A DNA stretch of 64,000 nucleotides from a virus (IMGVR_UViG_3300005613_000006:96001-160000), one strand, 5' to 3'. Numbered from the stretch's first letter, positions 2,769-62,554 are shown. Program-made: numbers and translations. The notes: generated by a model not told the origin, from the sequence alone.

Positions 2769-3442
2769 TACTCTATCTCTCCTATGTTATCAAAAACAAC
2801 TGGAATGAGAAGCCGCATTTCCTTGAGCAGCGGTTTCATTACCTCTCGAATCTGCGGGTGGGCGGCGTGTGCTGTGCGTAGGTTGAATACGTGCCGCCAC
2901 TCCCGCAAGTTGTATGTCGCCACGATTTCAGTCTTGAGACTGTTGGGTAAGACGCTACGAGCCTCTTGTGCTGCCCACTTGAAATGTTTGCGAAGGGTAT
3001 GATACCAATGCTCAGCATCTAGCATTGCGATTATCCAAGCTGCGCCTGGGGTATTGGCATCGGCGTGAACACCCCCGCCCTCATAGGTTCCTGGGGCTAT
3101 ATCCAGCCACAGCGGCTTGATGAACTTGATATGCTCACCACCGTAGTCACAATAGCGGGTAGACTCCTGTGAGTACGCTGCCAACCTGTGTCGCACAAGT
3201 TCGTGACTTATGCCTCGGTCAATAACAAAGCGAACGCTCACACTCTCATGCTCAAGAACACTATGGTGTCCTCGCGCAATAATCTTCCGCACAAATTCAC
3301 GGGCGGAATCGTTGGTGATTGCTGCCTCACTCTTGTAACAGGTACGACCGGCTGCTTCAATGCGTTTGAGCATGTCCACGCCGGTCATTCCCTGCTTATG
3401 CAACGGAGTCAGAATCTCACAGCTAGGTAGTACGACTTCCAT
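2768..3442 (-). CDS. thyX: FAD-dependent thymidylate synthase
   Basis: HHSVLEH and RHRLAAYSQESTRY motifs. Confidence 0.96.
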   Translation of the reverse strand: MEVVLPSCEILTPLHKQGMTGVDMLKRIEAAGRTCYKSEAAITNDSAREFVRKIIARGHHSVLEHESVSVRFVIDRGISHELVRHRLAAYSQESTRYCDYGGEHIKFIKPLWLDIAPGTYEGGGVHADANTPGAAWIIAMLDAEHWYHTLRKHFKWAAQEARSVLPNSLKTEIVATYNLREWRHVFNLRTAHAAHPQIREVMKPLLKEMRLLIPVVFDNIGEIE

Positions 3443-3638
3443 GCTTTGCCTTCCACTTCTTATCTAGGGCTGCTAGTTTAGCGTCAAGGTCTGCCTTAGC
3501 CCGTTTCTTTTCGTTCCATTGGTGCCCACAAGTTAGACAATAGTAGTCGTTAAGGCGTCGAATGTCACCCCGACGATGGGTGCGCCTTTTATTACAGCGA
3601 GGACACCTGGGATGAAATCTAGGAGTAGGTGGCATCAT
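3423..3638 (-). CDS. small Zn-ribbon protein
   Basis: CPRC...CLTCGHQW; TAATG coupling to upstream gene. Confidence 0.55.
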   Translation of the reverse strand: MMPPTPRFHPRCPRCNKRRTHRRGDIRRLNDYYCLTCGHQWNEKKRAKADLDAKLAALDKKWKAKHGSRTT

Positions 3639-9438: not shown

Positions 9439-11913
9439 CTACAAGCATTTGGACCATCCACAGGCAAGGCACTTTTTGCAGCCTTCCTCACGTATCAGGG
9501 GTTCCGCCCCACATGTTTCACATGGTTCTCCCACATCCTCAGTCCCGTCTGGTATGTACTTCTTGAGAGTACGGGCCATAGCTCTGGCAAAGCTATTCAT
9601 TTCTGTGTTCTCTCCTACTTTCTCCAACTGCTTCACAACAAAGTACATTTCTGCGCCATGTCGTAGTGCCGTGGAGGTCAATCGTGTAATCACTTCTTCC
9701 TGCGTGTTCATCATCGCCGTAATCGGTGAAAACTCCACGTCAGTACCTTCAAAAGAGACAGTATAGAAGTTCTTACGACGGCGTACAATAGTTCCACGTT
9801 TGACATTGCTGTTGATGTGTCCATTTCTGAGGGCAAATACCTCGTATGGGTCGCCCCCGTACAGCCCAACCAAGACGAGATAAGGCTCATGTTTGACTTT
9901 AACGTGATAGACTTCACAAGGGAGTTCCCGAGGGCGCTTCGGGGCCACTGTATGTATTATACCCCCTGATTTCGATTTGTCAAGCGACTTAATTACATTT
10001 TCTCTAGCCCCATCCCGATAGACAGTAATCCCCTTGCAACCAGCTTTCCACGCAGCGAGGTAGATGTTACCCACCTGGGTAGGGGTGGCGTTGGAGGGGA
10101 GATTGACAGTAGAGGAAATGGAATGGTCGATATGACGCTGCATCAGCGCTTGCATGGCGATGCGTTGTTTCCAGGGAACGTCATGCGCCTCATGTCCAGC
10201 CCACGGTGACTTGCTGAAATCTTTCTCGCCGGTCACGTCCCTCCATATACGAGCGGTCGGATGGATAGATTCAAACTCCATCCAATGGTCACCACTATCA
10301 TCTACAAAGTCTGTTCGGAAACCTTCGTCGCCAGGATTCCCCTTCTTTCTTCGCATGAATTGTATCGCCATAATCGGCTCACCCGCTGCGCTGCATCGAG
10401 CCTCAATCGCGCAGGAACCAGTGGGTGATTGGGTGAGGTTAGCAATGTTGCGTCGTCCGTAGCGCCCCATGCGGTTGTATATGGCCTCGCCTTTAATCAC
10501 ACGACCATCTTCAAGGTCAACTTCCTCTTCCTTAAAGCGGAGCAGGAATGGGTGGTCCTTTTCTTTGGCCCACTGCCACACAGGAAATGCCCCAAGGTCT
10601 TTTGCCATCTCTGTTGATGACCAGTATGAGGCGAACTTGAGTGTCCGATACGCTCGTTCTGTGAAGGTCAACGCCTCTCTACTATTGAAACCTATGCCCA
10701 GAGCGGCAAGCGTGTCGGCTAGACCTACTAAGCCCAAGCCTGTTCGTCGCCCATTGTAACACATGGCCTCAATGTGTTCCCAAAGTTCAAGTTCTGCTCG
10801 CTTGATATGGTCAGGCTCAGGGTCATCTTTGATTTTCTGAATAATGCGTCGGATGCACTCCAACTCCAAATCAATGATGTCGTCTAACAATCGTTGTGCC
10901 AAAATGGCATCGTCGTAGAATGCAGCCCAATCGAATCTCGCATTGTCTGTGAAAGGGTCAATAATGTAGGAGAGCAGACGCAGTATCAACAGCCGACAAG
11001 AATCGCCAGCCGGAAGCGGTAGTTCGCTACATGGGTTCGTTGCTACCGTTTTGAATTCATCCTCACAATAGCAGTCAGCGGGACTCTCTCGAATGACGGT
11101 ATCCCAAAACAAAAGCCCCGGCTCCGCGTGTGCATGTGCGTTATTGATAATGTCTTTCCAAACAACGCGGGCCGGGACTCTGTTCTTAATCACAGGTTGG
11201 TTGCCCTCGACGGGCCACTGTTGGGTGTAATCCTTGTTGTTGACGACCGCTTTCATAAATTGGTCCGTCAGACGAACAGATAGATTTGCTCCCGTAACCT
11301 GTGTTTTGTCTGTTTTGCAGCGAGCAAAGTCCACTACGTCGGGATGATTGACGTGTAGCGACAACATGAGTGCGCCACGTCTTCCATCCTGTCCGACCTC
11401 TCGTATGCTATGAGAGAATCGACCGGCGAAGCATACTGGACCTGTGCTGGTGCGCGAGGAGTTGCGAGTTGGAGCCGTATTGGGTCTCAACTCTGAAATA
11501 TCTGTGCCGCAGCCGCCTCTTCGCTTACTGATTTGCGTGATTTGCTGGTCAGTATAGTGGATGCCTCCGTAACTATCCAAAGGCGGGTCTATGGCGTAGC
11601 AATTCGATAGCGTGACGAACTGTTGAGTGTTTCCAATACCATACATACACCCGCCCTGTGGAATGATGCGCTTGAAGCCATCAAGTAAGTCGAAGATTTG
11701 GTCTTCGGTCAGGGCGTTATCACCATATTTCTTACGTTCGACGCGAGCAAATTCCTTTGCCATGCGTCGGTGCATATCGGTCGGTGTGAGTTCTAGGATT
11801 CGTTTCTTTTCGTCGCGTAGGGCATATTTGTCTACCCAAACTTGTGCCGCTAGGTCATTGCCGTCGAAGTATTTAATGGAGGCATCAAGAGCTTTTTTGT
11901 AGCTGTGAGCCAT
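9439..11913 (-). CDS. nrdJ: class II (B12-dependent) ribonucleotide reductase
   Basis: SNCY, GRRGALM, TNPCSEL, PTGS, KGITVYRDG, C-terminal Zn ribbon. Confidence 0.93.
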   Translation of the reverse strand: MAHSYKKALDASIKYFDGNDLAAQVWVDKYALRDEKKRILELTPTDMHRRMAKEFARVERKKYGDNALTEDQIFDLLDGFKRIIPQGGCMYGIGNTQQFVTLSNCYAIDPPLDSYGGIHYTDQQITQISKRRGGCGTDISELRPNTAPTRNSSRTSTGPVCFAGRFSHSIREVGQDGRRGALMLSLHVNHPDVVDFARCKTDKTQVTGANLSVRLTDQFMKAVVNNKDYTQQWPVEGNQPVIKNRVPARVVWKDIINNAHAHAEPGLLFWDTVIRESPADCYCEDEFKTVATNPCSELPLPAGDSCRLLILRLLSYIIDPFTDNARFDWAAFYDDAILAQRLLDDIIDLELECIRRIIQKIKDDPEPDHIKRAELELWEHIEAMCYNGRRTGLGLVGLADTLAALGIGFNSREALTFTERAYRTLKFASYWSSTEMAKDLGAFPVWQWAKEKDHPFLLRFKEEEVDLEDGRVIKGEAIYNRMGRYGRRNIANLTQSPTGSCAIEARCSAAGEPIMAIQFMRRKKGNPGDEGFRTDFVDDSGDHWMEFESIHPTARIWRDVTGEKDFSKSPWAGHEAHDVPWKQRIAMQALMQRHIDHSISSTVNLPSNATPTQVGNIYLAAWKAGCKGITVYRDGARENVIKSLDKSKSGGIIHTVAPKRPRELPCEVYHVKVKHEPYLVLVGLYGGDPYEVFALRNGHINSNVKRGTIVRRRKNFYTVSFEGTDVEFSPITAMMNTQEEVITRLTSTALRHGAEMYFVVKQLEKVGENTEMNSFARAMARTLKKYIPDGTEDVGEPCETCGAEPLIREEGCKKCLACGWSKCL

Positions 11914-14952: not shown

Positions 14953-15085
14953 GTAAAAAAAGCGGCAGTATGCTTCAACCATGTGGGAAGCGCGCGAACT
15001 AACCAACTGCCGCTTTACGGTGCTTTTCGGTTCACTCGCCTAAACGAGCCGGAAAAGCCACTGTCAAAACTGGTTAGTCCCAGAG

Positions 15086-15155
15086 TAGCGATGGAGGAAA
15101 TCGAATCCTCTTGGTGTCCGTATGAAAGACACTGAGTTACCAAACACACATCGCT
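15086..15155 (-). tRNA. tRNA-Met/Ile2(CAT), atypical D arm
   Basis: TGTCT-TTCATAC-GGACA anticodon arm; T arm present. Confidence 0.7.
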
Positions 15156-15231: not shown

Positions 15232-15457
15232 TTTTACAACACCGTCTTTAATCAGACGTTGCATATGAACGCTATTGCCTTTTGGGTAATCACAAGCAAT
15301 ACAACGATACCTCATGCCTCCACGTAGGGCTGGATGAAAATATCGGCATTGTGGTGGATGGCCACAAGGTAATAGTTTATCGTTCATAGAGTCCTCCATA
15401 CGGAATCGAACTGTTTATACCTTTTTGGTGTATAATAAAATACGGCTCGATTCAAAG

Positions 15458-15525
15458 AGCCTCACCGGGGAATCGAACCCCGTTATCTCGGGTACAAACC
15501 GAAACTTAGACCCATCTAGCAAGGC
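15458..15525 (-). tRNA. tRNA-Thr(TGT)
   Basis: Cloverleaf, short D arm. Confidence 0.8.
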
Positions 15526-25098: not shown

Positions 25099-25360
25099 AT
25101 ACGCACACGCTAAACTCTACGTCCCAATGGATTACGAACGCAAAACCGTGTGCGTCGATGGCATTCGCCATCCAAAGAGTCCTGACTGGTTCGCCTTCTG
25201 TGTTTATCCCTTGCAGCAACCCATAGGTGTCGCTTCAACTGCAAGGCCCAGTATCTCTCACCGTACATCTCAGGGCTGTTGCCAACCACGTTCGTCAGCT
25301 TACACCCAGGCTTTCGAGGCCCCCATCGGAAGACTACGGACTGCCGTTTTCTGGACTCAG

Positions 25361-25428
25361 TGGAGCGACGGGGACTCGAACCCCGCCTCCGACCGTGCAA
25401 AGGTCAGGTCTAGCCCTCTAGCCACCCC
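25361..25428 (-). tRNA. tRNA-Ala(TGC), reduced D arm
   Basis: G3:U70 pair, T arm. Confidence 0.8.
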
Positions 25429-25473
25429 TTTTTGCTCGTCGTACAAGGTATTATACACCGGGAATTCGGTTTG

Positions 25474-26103
25474 TCAACCAACTTTTTGAAGATTTTCATG
25501 GACAAACCAAGCATCCCAGCCAACTTCCCTCATCCAGGTGTATCCCTTATCCCTCAGAAAAGTGGTAATATCCTCCAAATACTTGCGGTCTCGCCCCTCA
25601 TGGCAGTTGTGTTCCACGGTGATAATTCCAAACACCCAGGTCCAGTCGTAGGATTTCAGAATGTCTAGCTCCGAGCCCTCTGTGTCGATGGACAGGTAGT
25701 TAACGTAGGAAGGAGCGCCGTGTTCGGCCAGGAGGTCATGTAACGTGACGCACGGAATCTCCACTTCCCTCCCAAACTGCTGTCTTTCTTTCTGATACGG
25801 CTGGTCGAGGTCAACAAACTCTGAAATGGTGGAGCAAACACCACCAGAAAAATCAACCTCGGTGAACTTCACGGTTCCGTTGTGGGTCCACACAGCCCGC
25901 TTGTCCCTCTTGCATGTACGCCCGAACTTGTCGTATTGTTCGTCGTTTATCAACGGGTCCACGCAAATTCCTTGCCACCCCGCCTCGTCTAACAAAAACG
26001 AGTTGCTGAAATGCTCCGCATGGCTTGCGCCGACCTCCACATAGAAGCCCTCGTTCCCTACTTTCTCCAACACGAACTTGTCCTGTCCTAACTGACTAGG
26101 CAT
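25474..26103 (-). CDS. FkbM-family methyltransferase
   Basis: SQLGQD, VEVGA, LSIDTEGSE. Confidence 0.88.
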   Translation of the reverse strand: MPSQLGQDKFVLEKVGNEGFYVEVGASHAEHFSNSFLLDEAGWQGICVDPLINDEQYDKFGRTCKRDKRAVWTHNGTVKFTEVDFSGGVCSTISEFVDLDQPYQKERQQFGREVEIPCVTLHDLLAEHGAPSYVNYLSIDTEGSELDILKSYDWTWVFGIITVEHNCHEGRDRKYLEDITTFLRDKGYTWMREVGWDAWFVHENLQKVG

Positions 26104-26719: not shown

Positions 26720-26722
26720 AAG

Positions 26723-26795
26723 TACCCCGAGCAGGACTCGAACCTGCGGTCTTCGGATTAGGAATCCGCTGCGTTATCCTCTACGCCACCGGGGC
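26723..26795 (-). tRNA. tRNA-Arg(CCT)
   Basis: Cloverleaf. Confidence 0.92.
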
Positions 26796-27033
26796 GTTGG
26801 TTTTTCAGAAGTTCTTTCATCTGTCTGTCTGCTTCCAGAGACATAACAAGGTCTACCGCGCTCTGGTAGATTTCATCTCCATACGTCTTACGAAGTATGT
26901 CATGCAAAATTCCACCGGCCTTGCCGAGAAATTCGGCATGAGTCCACATACTGGTCCCGCCGTTGTTGTCGATAACATGCGTCTTAGTTACCGTCAGCGT
27001 TCCGTGTTTCGTGTGCCAAATCTGTGGTTTCAT
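26758..27033 (-). CDS. hypothetical protein
   Basis: ORF overlapping tRNA 5' end. Confidence 0.5.
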   Translation of the reverse strand: MKPQIWHTKHGTLTVTKTHVIDNNGGTSMWTHAEFLGKAGGILHDILRKTYGDEIYQSAVDLVMSLEADRQMKELLKNQRPGGVEDNAADS

Positions 27034-27868
27034 TTTGCAACATCCTGAGAATGTGGTTATACGTTGCTTCTAGTGTGAAGTATTCCGGCCACACTTCTCT
27101 CACCCTCTCTTGCTTGCGAGCAATGTCGGCGCTGGTATGACTCCTCAATATGTCAGGCAGCCTGTCAATATCATCTATGTGACATTGAACACTGAACTCG
27201 CACCAATTCAAAACGTCAGCGTAAGGAAGCCATAACACATCGTAGATGTAAACTGGTATAGCTCCGTAGGCCAGTGCCTCGCATATACGAAATGAAGTTC
27301 TTCCATATCCGCGTGGGCACAGCGCGAAAATACACTTGCCCATTCTGTGCAAGGGGTCATGCTTAGTATCTTTGATGGAGAAATCTGAGAGCCCCTTCAA
27401 CGCCTCGTTCATGCGCCCCCGAACACCAGTCCGGTTGTTAGGAGGGTTTTTGATATGTCCAGCAAAGTAAGCAAATACATCTCGGTCTCCTTTAACCGGG
27501 ACGGTAACGATGTTGTACGTCAGAGGAATCGGTATATCCCCTTTGCCACCAGCTCCAAAAACCAACAAGTTTTCTGGGGGCTCCTCATACAAACCATCAT
27601 CGGCTTGTACTATAGTGAACGATGGTTCTGTGACCTGTTCGTTCATAAACTTTTGAAGTTCTCGACTGTACTCCTTGTTGGACCCAGGCCCAATGCCATA
27701 CTTGCAGTACACATGTGTCCAAAAGATTGGTAAGTAGTGACGCCGAATGTTGTCGGGCGGATTGTTCAGCCATCGCTCGTAGAAATAGTCTTCTATCTTT
27801 GGACCCACCTTTGGGTATCCTCGACACATACGAGACAATTCACGAAATCTGCCCAATGTATCAATCAT
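26984..27868 (-). CDS. exostosin-like (GT47) glycosyltransferase
   Basis: FALCPRGYGRTSFRICEALAYGAIPV. Confidence 0.88.
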   Translation of the reverse strand: MIDTLGRFRELSRMCRGYPKVGPKIEDYFYERWLNNPPDNIRRHYLPIFWTHVYCKYGIGPGSNKEYSRELQKFMNEQVTEPSFTIVQADDGLYEEPPENLLVFGAGGKGDIPIPLTYNIVTVPVKGDRDVFAYFAGHIKNPPNNRTGVRGRMNEALKGLSDFSIKDTKHDPLHRMGKCIFALCPRGYGRTSFRICEALAYGAIPVYIYDVLWLPYADVLNWCEFSVQCHIDDIDRLPDILRSHTSADIARKQERVREVWPEYFTLEATYNHILRMLQNETTDLAHETRNADGN

Positions 27869-27870
27869 AG

Positions 27871-28193
27871 TAATCTCCTATAGCCGGGATTCTGTGGTAG
27901 CTACGCTACCGCTCAACATTTATCTTAGCACCTACCCGAGCATCATCGGCCTGTTCATCGCCTAGCTCTGTTTGGCTTGCACCCTCGGTAGTGCAGTCGG
28001 ATGCTGGATGGCGTAACAAGAACATTTCTTTAGCAGCTTCTTCGTCGTACCCCCCTCCGAAACAATCGTCAAAAGAGTCTTCCAACATGTCAGCAAGTTT
28101 ACATCTTGATAATGCCATCAGCATCCTCCTACCTTAAACAGTGGTGTCCTGAGCTTCCTGTAGGGCTACGCCCCACCGTTGAGCCAGAGATTA
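27871..28193 (-). ncRNA. rnpB: minimal RNase P RNA
   Basis: P1 TAATCTCT/GGAGATTA, P2 GCTCAAC/GTTGAGC, P3, CR-I AGGAAGCTCAGGAC, P5/P6/P7, P15 GGGTAGGTGCT, CR-IV AGATAAATG, CR-V ACAGAATCCCGGCTA. Confidence 0.85.
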
Positions 28194-28499
28194 TCTGCGT
28201 GGTTGTGCCTGTTGTCTGTACTGCCACTTCCACCATCGCGCTCTCGCATACGGTCTCCAAACTGGTGGCGCGTATGGATAGCGTGGTACTACCTGTGGTG
28301 GCACCGGCCCAGGCTGGTAGAGCCAGGGTCGAATCCACGGACGGTATGGGTATGGGGCCACGTATGGCTGCGCGTATGGCTGGCCGTAGTATGGTCCCGG
28401 CTGTGGGCCTTGCGGAGCCTGTGGCTCTTGTGCGTCAACAACGCCACATAGCCCAATGCAAAGCAGCACGGCTGCTACGATTGCTAGAATGTTTTTCAT
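28191..28499 (-). CDS. small secreted Pro/Tyr-rich protein
   Basis: Signal peptide, PY repeats. Confidence 0.6.
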   Translation of the reverse strand: MKNILAIVAAVLLCIGLCGVVDAQEPQAPQGPQPGPYYGQPYAQPYVAPYPYRPWIRPWLYQPGPVPPQVVPRYPYAPPVWRPYARARWWKWQYRQQAQPRR

Positions 28500-28711: not shown

Positions 28712-28713
28712 AG

Positions 28714-28797
<84 letters not shown>

Positions 28798-39074: not shown

Positions 39075-39089
39075 TGCTTGTCCTCTCAG

Positions 39090-39158
39090 TGGAGCGTAAG
39101 GGAATCGAACCCTTCTGCCTTCGGTGCGAGCGAAAGCCCTAGCCCACTACGACGCCCC
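39090..39158 (-). tRNA. tRNA-Ala(CGC), reduced D arm
   Basis: G3:U70 pair. Confidence 0.8.
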
Positions 39159-42126: not shown

Positions 42127-42161
42127 TGGAATCCCTTCTACATAGGGTATCAAATCTCAAG

Positions 42162-42231
42162 AGCCCACGCCGAGAATCGAACTCGGAACCGTTCTTTACG
42201 GGAGAACAGTAAGTCCCAACTTTACGCGGGC
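42162..42231 (-). tRNA. tRNA-Thr(CGT), C33
   Basis: GTTCT-CCCGTAA-AGAAC. Confidence 0.75.
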
Positions 42232-50300: not shown

Positions 50301-50440
50301 ATCGTAGCCCGTAACGTGGGCTAATCGGGGGACGACTCAAGAGCCGCCTTCACCACCAACTTTTGACAGAAGTTGGAAACTGGGAGGGTAGCCGAAGCCA
50401 CTCCCACCGCCACCAGTTCTTTATGGAAACTGGAAACCAG

Positions 50441-50513
50441 CGACCCTAGCGGGAATTGAACCCGCGTCGAGAGGTTGAAAGCCTCACATCCTAGTCCACT
50501 AGAAGATAGGGCC
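50441..50513 (-). tRNA. tRNA-Glu(TTC)
   Basis: Cloverleaf. Confidence 0.92.
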
Positions 50514-59490: not shown

Positions 59491-60022
59491 AGTTGTCAGG
59501 ACACATGATATGCTTCCGGCGCTTGTCTACTTTGACGCCAGCCGAGGCTACTCGCAGCCGCGTTCGCGGCCTGGGTATCGACGGGTCGATAGATTCGCGG
59601 ATACTGACGTTGGGTAGCCCGTTGAGTCGATATAAGGCCCCTACGAGGTCCACACTGCGCGTTGTGGTGCGGAATAGGACTTCGGGGCAGGCTCGCGCGA
59701 TTCTAAACCACTTGTTGACGTATGGCTCAGAGTAGAAGTCCCCGCTCACATGAATACGAAAGTAGCGAACGCCACTCTTCTTGATTTCAGCTATCATGCG
59801 GGTTTCAAAGTCGCTTTGCTTGCTTGCCTCGTACCGGCGCTCGAAAGATGCTACGACATTGGGCCACGTTAGCCGCCCACGTAACGCATAGCAGCGAGGC
59901 TTACCAGCTTTGCCCTTCAAACACCACTTGGACGGCCTACAAGTCTTGACTGGCGGCAGACTAAACGTAGCGACGTTCGGCCCCATTTTCTGGTTGCCGA
60001 TTCCAATGAGTTTGTTTGACAT
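59426..60022 (-). CDS. Gp88-like (radical-SAM-related) phage protein
   Basis: FSLPPVKTC...CYA, RIHVSGDFY. Confidence 0.75.
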   Translation of the reverse strand: MSNKLIGIGNQKMGPNVATFSLPPVKTCRPSKWCLKGKAGKPRCYALRGRLTWPNVVASFERRYEASKQSDFETRMIAEIKKSGVRYFRIHVSGDFYSEPYVNKWFRIARACPEVLFRTTTRSVDLVGALYRLNGLPNVSIRESIDPSIPRPRTRLRVASAGVKVDKRRKHIMCPDNCEVCGHRCWEEMDKDEIFEEF

Positions 60023-60035
60023 GACTTCCTCTCAT

Positions 60036-60076
60036 AAAAAAGACCCTACGGCATCAACCACAGACACCGTAGGGCC
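60036..60076 (-). terminator. intrinsic terminator
   Basis: CCCTACGG/CCGTAGGG hairpin followed by T-run. Confidence 0.65.
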
Positions 60077-60173
60077 GTTCTCCGAACCTCATCACGGGAG
60101 ATTACCATGCGCAACCACGGTGTTCACCTATGCTTCAAAAAAACGATGTTTCTCAAAATCCAACTGACCACTT

Positions 60174-60506
60174 TTAGTTGTCGGCTTCATGGTGTAGTTT
60201 GGCGTGGCAGTTTAAGCAGTACACGTCACACTTCGCTATCTCAGCAAGGATACGTTCGATGCTGAAACACCTATTTACCATTACTGCGATTCCCATTTCC
60301 TTTTGAGCCGGGTCTCGATGGTGAAAGCACAAGCACGCTGGATGGTTTTCGCCACATTCCTTACATTGCTTGTCTTTCTTGTATTCTCTCAACCACGCCC
60401 ACTTCTTTTTCCTCAGTTTGGCTTTATTGGTGGCGTAGTTGGTCTTGTTGGCCTCATAGTGCTTCTTGCTTAATTCTCGGCGCTTCTCAGGGTCTTTGTA
60501 TGGCAT
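60174..60506 (-). CDS. small HNH endonuclease
   Basis: CLCFHHRD...KCDVYCLNCH. Confidence 0.88.
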   Translation of the reverse strand: MPYKDPEKRRELSKKHYEANKTNYATNKAKLRKKKWAWLREYKKDKQCKECGENHPACLCFHHRDPAQKEMGIAVMVNRCFSIERILAEIAKCDVYCLNCHAKLHHEADN

Positions 60507-60589
60507 CGGAGCCTCCTGATTTGGGGTACACTACATTATACACCAAATCAGACTGCAAAGAAGTCTTGAACCCCTAAGTTTCTAAAAAG

Positions 60590-60664
60590 GCCCGCCGAAA
60601 GGGTGTCGAACCCCTCACCACGACTCGCGCGTTGTGGTGGTGTGTCCACGCTACACTCGACGGT
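60590..60664 (-). ncRNA. tRNA-like RNA
   Basis: CCGTCGA/TCGGCGG acceptor, T arm, 15-nt central loop. Confidence 0.45.
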
Positions 60665-60766
60665 TGTGACACTAGGGAAGACGTGCGCCCGCCTCCCCTA
60701 GTGTTTGATTCACTGCGCTTGTCCAGCTATTCCAAAAAAAGCGATTCAATTACGCAAAGCATTAAA

Positions 60767-60866
60767 GACGACAAAACGATGCTGGGAAGTGTGCTTAAAC
60801 CTCCTTCGGTTTTGCTGGATTCGCGACTCTTTTCGTCATTTGCATGTAATCCCAACTACATTCGCC
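60767..60866 (-). ncRNA. Y RNA-like RNA 5, immediately downstream of Ro60
   Basis: GGCGAATG...GGGATTACATG / TTCCC...TTGTCGTC. Confidence 0.72.
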
Positions 60867-60922
60867 TGCCCGCTACCCTGGTCGGCTTGAATCTACCGGC
60901 CAGGGCGACAATATGCGGGCGA

Positions 60923-62494
60923 TTAGTCTCCTGAGTAGTTTTCCACGATGGAAACAAAGTCTTCGCCGCTTTCACGGTTGAAGAAGTCGTCCATCACGGT
61001 GAATACGGCATCGCTGAAACCACCCACGTTCAACACAACGCCTTCGCGTTCTGGTGTCTGCGTGGTAGTGTTTGGCGTAATGTCGATGTTCACCAACTTA
61101 CTCTTTGGGTTTCTACTGTGGAACTCAGTCCACTCTTGGGCCGTACCGCCTCGACCACCATGACGACCAAACCAACTTTCGTTGTCCGATACGTAGATGA
61201 TGTTCTCAGCCTTGGCTCTTGTGTTGTTCAAGTGTCGTAGTGGAACCGAGCAGTCGGTTCCCCCACCACCAAAGCTGCGCAAGGTCTGCGCATTGGTCAT
61301 AACACTGTCAAACGGGTTCAAGTGTGCATTGTACAAACGGTTGTCGAATGGCATGATGCTGGCGTTCTTGTTTTGACGGAGTACGCACACTGCGAACAGG
61401 GCGGCTACGTCAACACACTTGGTAACGCTGTACGAACCAGTACGACGGCCCATTGCAACCCAACTCATTGAGCTTGACACGTCCACACCAACCACAGTGC
61501 GGCCTCGGAAGGTCGGCACGTTTTCCGTAGCAATTTCCATAGCTTCCTGCAAGGCGTTACTGATACGGCTGTCGATGGTCACGTTTTGGTACGTGGTCAA
61601 CAGTTGGTATGGGAAGACGTTGCACTGGCGAACCAATTCTGGATTGGCCAACTTCGCGGCCACTTCGTCCACAAATGCGCTGCTACCGAACACACCACGC
61701 TTTTCGAGCATGTTCAAGTTCATACGCAAAGTGTTCCAGGGCATGTTGCGAGCAATGTCACGCCATGCGTTGACACCCAACTTCAAGTTCGTCAAAGCGC
61801 GAAATGGAACGTCTGGGATTTCGTACTCATCTGGCACGTCACCCATTTCCTTCAACGCTTCAAACTGTTGAATGTCTTCTGGTAGGTACTGGTAGTTTTC
61901 GTCGCTCAACTTACCAATCAAGTACGAGAACATAGCTTGCTGTTCTCTACCCACTGGACGTGGGTGTACCATCTTGATAGCATCGGCAAGCGACGGGTTG
62001 CTGTGACCTACGCTGGCGATGTACAGCTTGTACGCACTGCGGTCTTGCAGCCATCGCTGGATGCAACGCTTTACGGCAGTACCAAAGCTACGTCGGCCAA
62101 CGGCACCACTACGAATCAAGTGCATGAAGTTCAACAGCATCTTGCTGTTGTTACACACACGATTGAAGATGGTCTTGACCAACTCGGTTTCGCCTCTGGC
62201 GGCTAGAGTAGCCAACAGGTAAGCAGGAACGTCCTTCATTCGACCAACCTCACGGCTGTAGACCGCTAGCTTGGCCAAAAACTCTGACGAACATTCGTTT
62301 GCCAGCGCTTGGATTTCCTTGACTTGTTCACCGGCGCTGACATAGAAGGTGTTGCTGAACGTACCAGTTACGGCGTACTGTGCCAGGGCATGTTCGTTGG
62401 TCTTGCTGTACGCAAGGCCACCAGCGTGATTTCGCGTGTCTGGACGAGGCGTGTTACGCGAACGACAACGGTTTCTGAAAAGATTCTTGTTCAT
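60923..62494 (-). CDS. rsr: Ro60/Rsr TROVE-domain RNA-binding protein
   Basis: NHAGGLAY, TROVE core, vWA DVSSSM...GGGTD...SDNESW. Confidence 0.93.
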   Translation of the reverse strand: MNKNLFRNRCRSRNTPRPDTRNHAGGLAYSKTNEHALAQYAVTGTFSNTFYVSAGEQVKEIQALANECSSEFLAKLAVYSREVGRMKDVPAYLLATLAARGETELVKTIFNRVCNNSKMLLNFMHLIRSGAVGRRSFGTAVKRCIQRWLQDRSAYKLYIASVGHSNPSLADAIKMVHPRPVGREQQAMFSYLIGKLSDENYQYLPEDIQQFEALKEMGDVPDEYEIPDVPFRALTNLKLGVNAWRDIARNMPWNTLRMNLNMLEKRGVFGSSAFVDEVAAKLANPELVRQCNVFPYQLLTTYQNVTIDSRISNALQEAMEIATENVPTFRGRTVVGVDVSSSMSWVAMGRRTGSYSVTKCVDVAALFAVCVLRQNKNASIMPFDNRLYNAHLNPFDSVMTNAQTLRSFGGGGTDCSVPLRHLNNTRAKAENIIYVSDNESWFGRHGGRGGTAQEWTEFHSRNPKSKLVNIDITPNTTTQTPEREGVVLNVGGFSDAVFTVMDDFFNRESGEDFVSIVENYSGD

Positions 62495-62554
62495 AGGATT
62501 TCTCCCTTCATTCAGCAAAAGTCTGACAAAATTTCCTGGGCCTAAAAGCCCAAC

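Follow-up and report, generated by a model that had tools for sequence, protein, structure and literature searches.

RNase P RNA, the RNA enzyme that trims new tRNAs, counts as a ribozyme universal to cells, and a candidate for one in a phage genome raises two questions: whether the RNA belongs to this class, and what it would do for the virus. The candidate lies in a 64,000-nucleotide stretch (here called the window), bases 96001-160000 of an IMG/VR virus record of 172,878 bp that CheckV rates as complete. The record has 49% GC and 41 tRNA genes called by ARAGORN, 37 of them within the window and all 37 on the minus strand, the strand of the candidate RNA as well. A first-pass annotation of the sequence had described a phage-encoded minimal RNase P RNA without the canonical specificity domain (S-domain) at 27871-28193 of the window. 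These coordinates proved exact: read on the minus strand, P1 opens at 28193 and closes at 27871. The RNA exactly occupies the gap between two minus-strand ORFs. Table 1 lists its features.

Table 1. Features of the RNase P-like RNA gene, in window coordinates.
Feature	Coordinates	Strand	Remarks
Whole RNase P-like RNA gene, 323 nt, P1 5' end to P1 3' end	27871-28193	-	R1 match 27869-28196; RF00373 match 27870-28194; P1 search
P1 5' strand, TAATCTCT	28186-28193	-	First three bases are the TAA stop of ORF 28191-28499
P2 5' strand, GGCTCAAC	28178-28185	-	Partner GTTGAGC, 27911-27917
P3 hairpin, GGGGC-GTA-GCCCT	28162-28174	-	Resized in L061 to GGGC-TTT-GCCC
CR-I	28146-28160	-	Includes P4 5' strand AGC[T]CAGGA (28147-28155) with conserved bulged U
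P5 5' strand, CACC	28143-28146	-	Partner GGTG, 27980-27983; covariation in family
P6 pseudoknot 5' strand, CTGTTT	28136-28141	-	Partner GAACAG, 27951-27956, in P17 loop
P7 5' strand, GGTAG	28129-28133	-	Partner CTACC, 27987-27991
Lineage-specific long hairpin in place of S-domain, 128 nt	27999-28126	-	Closed by GGATGCTGATGGC/GCCATCCAGCATCC; junction motifs GAG (5') and CGACTGCA (3')
72-aa ORF inside RNA, judged spurious	27906-28124	-	No protein family; chance-level length
J5/15 (CAA), P15 5' strand (GCC), L15 5' side (AAACA)	27969-27979	-	Alignment to E. coli rnpB 246-258 and to R1
P16 (GAGC/GCTC) and P17 hairpin (GGC/GCC), P17 loop bearing P6 3' strand	27938-27968	-	Sequence, R1
L15 3' side GGGTA, then P15 3' strand GGT	27928-27937	-	Identical to E. 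coli G291-A295
CR-IV, AGATAAATG	27917-27925	-	Follows P15 directly, no P18
P19 hairpin, GGTAGC-GTA-GCTACC	27896-27910	-	Between P2 3' strand and CR-V; identical in L061
CR-V, ACAGAATCCCGGCTAT	27880-27895	-	Includes P4 3' strand TCCCGGCT (27882-27889)
P1 3' strand, GGAGATTA	27871-27878	-	Doubles as Shine-Dalgarno region of GT47 gene

The upstream neighbour is a 102-aa proline-rich ORF (28191-28499, minus strand), and the downstream neighbour is a GT47-type glycosyltransferase gene (26984-27868, minus strand) with its ATG at 27868. Translation signals of both genes overlap the RNA (27866-27879 and 28191-28193), so that expression of the GT47 gene should respond if the RNA folds or is excised. 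A distance of 517 nt separates the RNA from the nearest tRNA, and its immediate neighbours are two ORFs, not tRNAs. A promoter and terminator scan at the RNA returned nothing above chance; one promoter-like site nearby would begin transcription inside P1.

The bacterial type A catalytic core is present, with P1 to P4, CR-I, CR-IV, CR-V and the bulged U in P4. P4 itself comprises eight pairs, the conserved bulged U and one A.C mismatch (in RNA letters, AGC-[U]-CAGGA with UCCCGGCU); the A at the fifth pair, two pairs past the bulged U, faces C at a place that is G-C in the family. The GGU-bearing internal loop P15/L15 is also found, as is J5/15, and the CAA of J5/15 and the GGGTA of L15 match E. 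coli rnpB (L184). In alignment to that RNA, GCAAGCCAAACAG falls on positions 246-258 and CGGGTAGGTGC (RNA letters CGGGUAGGUGC) on positions 290-300. Within L15 of the E. coli RNA (GGGUA, G291-A295), the nucleotides G292 G293 U294 are, by established RNase P biochemistry, those that bind the tRNA 3' end. An unconstrained fold of the window RNA by itself, taken as minimum free energy or as centroid, gives P1, P2, P3, the long hairpin, P16-P17 and P19.

Every helix that the first-pass annotation had named was found as written on the minus strand, in the right topology: P1 to P7, the P4 pseudoknot, P15-P16 and P19, together with CR-IV and CR-V. The annotation was likewise right that P18 and P8-P14, with CR-II and CR-III, are absent. 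A search for P18 between P15 and CR-IV found only GCTA separating the P15 3' strand from CR-IV, a search for CR-II and CR-III motifs in the 136-nt S-region between the P7 strands found none, and the Rfam alignment described below skips the S-domain. CR-II and CR-III of the S-domain form the T-loop reader, in the domain that measures the tRNA elbow. The loss of the canonical S-domain therefore stands, but the word minimal does not suit an RNA of 323 nt with a 128-nt hairpin at the S-domain position.

At gathering thresholds, Rfam reports no RNase P in the window. The archaeal RNase P model RF00373 nevertheless matches the window RNA end to end (model positions 1-288) with 28.6 bits against a gathering threshold of 84, and with an E-value of 3.2e-6 when 901 nt are searched and 1.5e-7 at the scale of the genome. 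This alignment covers CR-I, CR-IV and CR-V and passes over the S-domain as local ends. In a scan with all 4227 Rfam families, including type T RF02357, RF00373 was the best clan member and one lower clan match was masked; the RNA is also below the RF00010 gathering threshold of 100 bits. All of these Rfam scores lie far below gathering, and a weak RF00373 match elsewhere, at 60784-60878, found no support. Two pattern scans of IMG/VR yielded 50 loci, most with CR-I 96-298 nt upstream of CR-V and with a lineage-specific P1. A covariance model, R1, was constructed from ten of these sequences, all on other phage contigs, the window being left out. R1 matches the window RNA over its full length (model positions 1-203) with 62.8 bits and an E-value of 1.7e-15, a likeness well beyond chance. 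The model does not detect E. coli rnpB. The RNA is single-copy, with one R1 match in the 64-kb window and one in the whole genome.

Pair statistics were computed on a 38-sequence alignment with 34 distinct rows, in which nested helices were counted on the model-fitted alignment and P4 and P6 stood outside the model. Over the 34 distinct rows, 91.9% of pair cells hold standard pairs, as against 33-41% when the partners are slid by one to three columns, and 31 of 48 pairs show changes on both sides. P1 covaries, with 10 of 11 pairs altered on both sides, and compensatory changes occur in five of six P2 pairs. P4, a pseudoknot left out of the model, is 97.2% paired in the family, and its terminal pair covaries (A-U in 21 sequences, G-C in 8). 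The P6 strands are complementary lineage by lineage, scoring a mean of 5.9 with their own partners versus 4.0 across lineages; examples are GCAAGUG/CACUUGC, CUAAGAG/CUCUUAG, GAACAG/CUGUUC and AUAGCUUA/UGAGCUAU, the window having CUGUUUA/UGAACAG. The structure is shown to be under purifying selection. Both computational checks suggested with the first-pass annotation, a covariance-model search for the catalytic core and a covariation analysis across homologues in phage metagenomes, came out in its favour. Covariance-model matches and covariation together support the identification of the RNA as a homologue of RNase P RNA that is carried by a phage, has its catalytic domain (C-domain) intact and lacks a canonical S-domain.

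Members of the family to which it belongs occur throughout in tRNA arrays. Across 35 non-redundant loci, 445 of 445 flanking tRNAs lie on the strand of the RNA, and the median gap to the nearest tRNA is 9 nt. One member is found in a cultured virus, Stenotrophomonas phage DLP6 (KU682439.2), at 105773-106019 in an unannotated gap 6 nt before a tRNA-Arg gene (R1, 114.6 bits), and another unannotated copy lies at 181311-181539 of the 735-kb phage LR756501 (101.3 bits). Against RF00010, relatives score 144 bits (L060, above gathering), 54.7 bits (DLP6, E-value 2.9e-14) and 34.5 bits (L061, E-value 1.9e-7). These matches point to a bacterial ancestry. Some members are missed altogether by Rfam, and it is because their scores are sub-threshold, as in DLP6, or because they are missed that these genes stay unannotated. 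In GenBank phages, blastn with the RNA region and with family members found nothing useful except a CR-I match in LR756501. Neither the flanking GT47 protein nor the DnaE-type polymerase of the phage retrieved any relatives when used as a query. A pattern scan of genome contigs gave at least 120 matches, about the number expected by chance; among the 80 loci listed from it, two carry the RNA (L117 and L094), both on contigs of metagenome-assembled genomes, which says little about bacterial carriers.

Members of the family range from 149 to 518 nt, and several have unusual additions. In L004 (7767-8204) and L008 (2231-2748), a large insert at the P18 position includes a tRNA-like 3' half, with a T arm (GGTTCAACTCC), an acceptor strand and CCA. 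On a 360-kb contig (L024), upstream of 11473-11566, an HNH-type endonuclease frame (CANCHRKEH) lies in the place of the S-domain, and the model matches the 3' core only. The L043 locus (3251-3490) has its P1 and P2 5' strands about 130 nt further upstream than the model match begins (within about 140 nt), which points to a large P3 insertion.

A protein search that used the 72-aa ORF inside the RNA as a handle returned two identical contigs (ENA ERZ27256772 and JGI 3300005346) and one diverged relative, L061 (JGI 3300017991), whose RNA core is 96% identical to that of the window over 120 core columns. In a tree from 121 core columns, only the pair of window and L061 is resolved (100/99), with the stub-type L015 as next neighbour (90/85); deeper nodes of this tree are unresolved, and the number of S-domain losses is not readable from it. 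L061 has a compensatory change in P7, from GGUAG/CUACC in the window to GGUGG/CCACC, and two small hairpins at the P18 site. Its CR-V reads UCCUGGCU, by which the A.C of the window P4 becomes A-U; A-U also occupies this position in L060, a relative that bears an S-domain. The A.C is real, since it is identical in three independent assemblies, and its position is that of a pair in evolutionary motion (G-C, A.C, A-U).

The window RNA and L061 differ most at the S-domain site, where L061 has unrelated sequence in place of the window hairpin, again a long hairpin closed by a perfect helix; this hairpin element evolves fast. In the window, the 136-nt S-region folds as one hairpin (-41.9 kcal/mol for 27999-28126, z -3.2), and none of 200 shuffles was as stable. 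The hairpin has no further copy elsewhere in the genome and so is not a repeated element. Among relatives, the sequence at the S-domain site ranges from 12 to about 170 nt. Inserts of 127-152 nt occupy the same site in L014 (3442-3774), L020 (4663-4970) and L023 (2011-2329), whose cores are almost identical to those of the stub-type L003 and L021. The S-domain site is therefore insertion-prone, and the window hairpin, best read as an expansion for that reason, is most likely a dispensable one. The inserts of L014, L020, L023 and L008 are closed by perfect inverted repeats of 9-20 bp and look like hairpin-closed intervening sequences.

The first-pass annotation had also proposed that loss of the S-domain fits many phage tRNAs with aberrant T loops or D arms. 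This fit is weak, because a canonical G53-TTCRA-C61 T loop is present in 37 of the 41 tRNAs and the D-loop GG in 39. A few tRNAs are short (69-71 nt; for example 15085-15155, 15457-15525, 25360-25428, 39089-39158 and 42161-42231); their anticodons fall at position 30-32, a sign of reduced D regions. ARAGORN makes 38 calls in the window, 37 tRNAs plus the tmRNA, and for 13 of them, including several of these short ones, Rfam gives no tRNA match at gathering score. At the 3' ends, no tRNA gene of the 41 encodes CCA, while C74 is present in 40 and C74-U75 follows the discriminator in 38 (e.g. 28713-28797 and 26722-26795). Other phages that bear the RNA have A-rich tRNA trailers instead of C74-U75. 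One hypothesis is that the C74-U75 trailer could pair with the G-G of L15 as C-G plus a U.G wobble. A CCA-adding enzyme gene (PF01743) was sought in the phage and none was found, nor was an rnpA gene (PF00825). Since the phage lacks rnpA, dependence of the window RNA on the RnpA protein of its host is a fair inference.

We consider it probable (about 0.7) that the gene encodes a phage RNase P RNA of bacterial type A ancestry that has kept the whole catalytic domain, has lost P18 and the S-domain, and processes phage pre-tRNAs with host RnpA. The RNA would be transcribed together with the tRNA-rich minus-strand region, from long minus-strand transcripts, and would then bind host RnpA. Contacts between RnpA and RNA in solved bacterial holoenzymes fall in the C-domain, which the phage RNA retains. 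The ribozyme would cut the 5' leaders off the 41 pre-tRNAs of the phage, and would recognize its substrates by the acceptor stem, with J5/15 reading the -1/+1 nucleotides and L15 the 3' trailer, rather than by measuring the T-loop elbow. According to a study of the E. coli RNA, the C-domain alone cleaves substrates, needs a P6-like pairing for this and does not need P18, whose role is a contact with P8 of the S-domain; C-domain-only ribozymes are described there as much less efficient in vitro (PMC5839562). The phage RNA, which keeps P6 and loses P18 together with the S-domain, follows the same logic as the E. coli C-domain.

A more elaborate form of this reading is unlikely. An active S-domain-free RNase P would take over tRNA 5' maturation during infection and would recognize the acceptor end only, with the C74-U75 trailer pairing to the L15 G-G; the long hairpin would be an intervening sequence like those of rRNA, cut after transcription to leave a two-piece ribozyme of about 190 nt.

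A C-domain-like fold could instead be a non-catalytic mimic that soaks up host RnpA or competes for pre-tRNAs, so that host tRNA maturation is shut down or redirected with no cleavage by the phage RNA. The A.C mismatch falls in P4, the catalytic helix, the S-domain and P18 are lost, and the phage encodes no protein to partner it, all of which would suit such a role; there is also a precedent in the RNase P-like RNA of camelpox virus, which is inactive in vitro (PMC3001073). A protein sponge, however, needs no substrate-contacting nucleotides, yet J5/15, the GGU of L15, the bulged U and the ACAGAA of CR-V are conserved. The sister sequence L061 and the other family members have a Watson-Crick P4, and placement in the phage's own tRNA arrays fits processing better than inhibition. 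We regard the mimic as improbable.

Similarly improbable, in our judgement, is an active ribozyme that acts mainly on substrates other than tRNAs, whether these be its own polycistronic transcripts, tmRNA or Y-like RNAs, or the RNA itself through self-excision between the flanking ORFs. The window RNA does lie between ORFs, with a stop codon overlapped on one side and a Shine-Dalgarno site on the other, the phage encodes a Ro60 protein and has an ARAGORN tmRNA call, and the known substrates of bacterial RNase P include some that are not tRNAs (PMC11143913). Against this, the RNAs of the family abut tRNAs at the short median distance given above, and the elements they conserve are the readers of the acceptor stem and its 3' end.

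It is less probable again that the locus is a decaying relic, a captured rnpB that has lost its S-domain and its function. The sub-threshold Rfam score, the mismatch in P4 and the large unconstrained insert at the S-domain position could all be signs of decay. Decay would not be expected to spare the core shared with L061 while the insert diverged beyond recognition; P7, P3 and P4 have changed in a compensatory way, no helix is broken, and three samples have the identical sequence.

That the region instead codes for an acidic 72-aa protein (27906-28124, minus strand), its likeness to RNase P being incidental, is hardly credible, although the frame is open with an AGGAGG 6 nt ahead of its second ATG and in L061 a frame of 75 aa is likewise open: neither Pfam nor PHROG has a family for the window ORF, dinucleotide shuffling produces an ORF of its size on the same strand in 3.2% of cases and on either strand in 9%, comparable frames arise by chance in other members (L050 and L013, for example), and the apparent Shine-Dalgarno site is the GU(A/G)GGAG RNA motif conserved in the family. 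The open frame of L061 reflects how that contig was found, since it was retrieved through the ORF. Identity to its only "homologue", P0002, is confined to the 22 residues encoded where the RNA cores are identical in nucleotides, and no relation is seen between the N-terminal halves; as a protein gene, 27906-28124 was rejected, its amino acids being no better conserved than the nucleotides of the RNA would make them. Because the changes in L061 are compensatory, and protein similarity is seen only where the RNA core is identical in nucleotides, the region evolves as RNA. Taken together, the conservation of the substrate contacts, the compensatory changes in L061 and the tRNA-array habitat argue against the mimic, relic and protein explanations.

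The window RNA shares with bacterial type A RNase P RNA (rnpB/M1, RF00010) P1 to P7, the bulged U of P4, P6, J5/15, P15-P17, the GGGUA of L15 and CR-I, CR-IV and CR-V. Unlike the RNAs of RF00010, it has no S-domain or P18, carries a 128-nt hairpin at the S-domain site, has a P4 one pair longer, and is encoded by a phage in a tRNA-rich region. A natural RNA of related architecture is the archaeal type T RNA of Thermoproteaceae (RF02357; PMC3579882, PMC13462272), which has also kept its catalytic domain and shed most of the specificity domain, and which standard Rfam models miss as they miss this one. Type T is archaeal and cellular and works with archaeal proteins, whereas the window RNA is viral, and its L15 GGU loop and P6 are signatures of bacterial type A. 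The engineered Eco CP RPR (Mao et al. 2018, PMC5839562) is similarly a C-domain without S-domain, and is reported to need a P6-like pairing and not P18; it is a laboratory construct of reduced efficiency, whereas the window RNA is natural, conserved and covarying. The camelpox RNA is also virus-encoded and RNase P-like, but it comes from a eukaryotic virus and its similarity is weak, whereas the window RNA keeps the full catalytic core with covariation. With the other phage tRNA-array RNAs, the window RNA shares the covariance model, the S-stub junction GU(A/G)GGAG ... CGNNNNCACYACC and the strand relation to tRNAs. It differs from them in the 128-nt hairpin at the stub, in P19, in the A.C of P4 and in its place between protein genes, not abutting a tRNA. 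Searches of PMC and bioRxiv returned no report of a phage-encoded RNase P RNA, and a huge-phage paper does not mention one; for the family to which the window RNA belongs, we could not find a printed description.

Should the RNA be active, viruses would bring their own tRNA-processing ribozyme beside their large tRNA sets, and RNase P of the bacterial type would be able to function in vivo with no domain for measuring the tRNA elbow. To our knowledge, RNase P without that domain has so far been known only from archaeal type T and from crippled laboratory constructs. Activity would also make the family, from 149 to more than 500 nt, a natural series of deletions and insertions in a single ribozyme, with which the minimal catalytic core could be defined. 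Both the S-domain stub and the P18 site are insertion hot spots that have received hairpins, an HNH gene and tRNA-like pieces. To this series the window adds a member with a long, replaceable hairpin, a pair that changes from A.C to A-U from one sister lineage to the other, and a tRNA trailer, C74-U75, that is conserved. The cultured pair of phage DLP6 and its host Stenotrophomonas maltophilia D1571 makes the question of activity directly testable.

Some other features of the genome deserve mention. Six large ORFs tested from 24-44 kb of the genome have no PHROG family match. Outside the window, a DnaE-type polymerase (Pol III alpha-like, phrog_405) is split into two ORFs about 1.7 kb apart (genome coordinates 80493-82214 and 83941-85908; L054), and its nearest tblastn matches in GenBank phages have at most 33% identity. 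A Ro60/TROVE-vWA RNA-binding protein of 531 aa (PF25045, PF05731, phrog_850) is encoded at 60923-62518 of the window, minus strand; an Rfam E-value scan of the adjoining 59800-61000 found no Y RNA. The ARAGORN tmRNA call, at 25360-25772 on the minus strand with the tag GGYYHFSEG*, overlaps the call of a 69-nt tRNA-Ala, and Rfam reports no tmRNA there at gathering score. A wcaG RNA (RF01761) is matched at 50342-50441, minus strand, with 47 bits versus a gathering threshold of 42, and lies between a tRNA-Ala gene and a tRNA-Glu gene.
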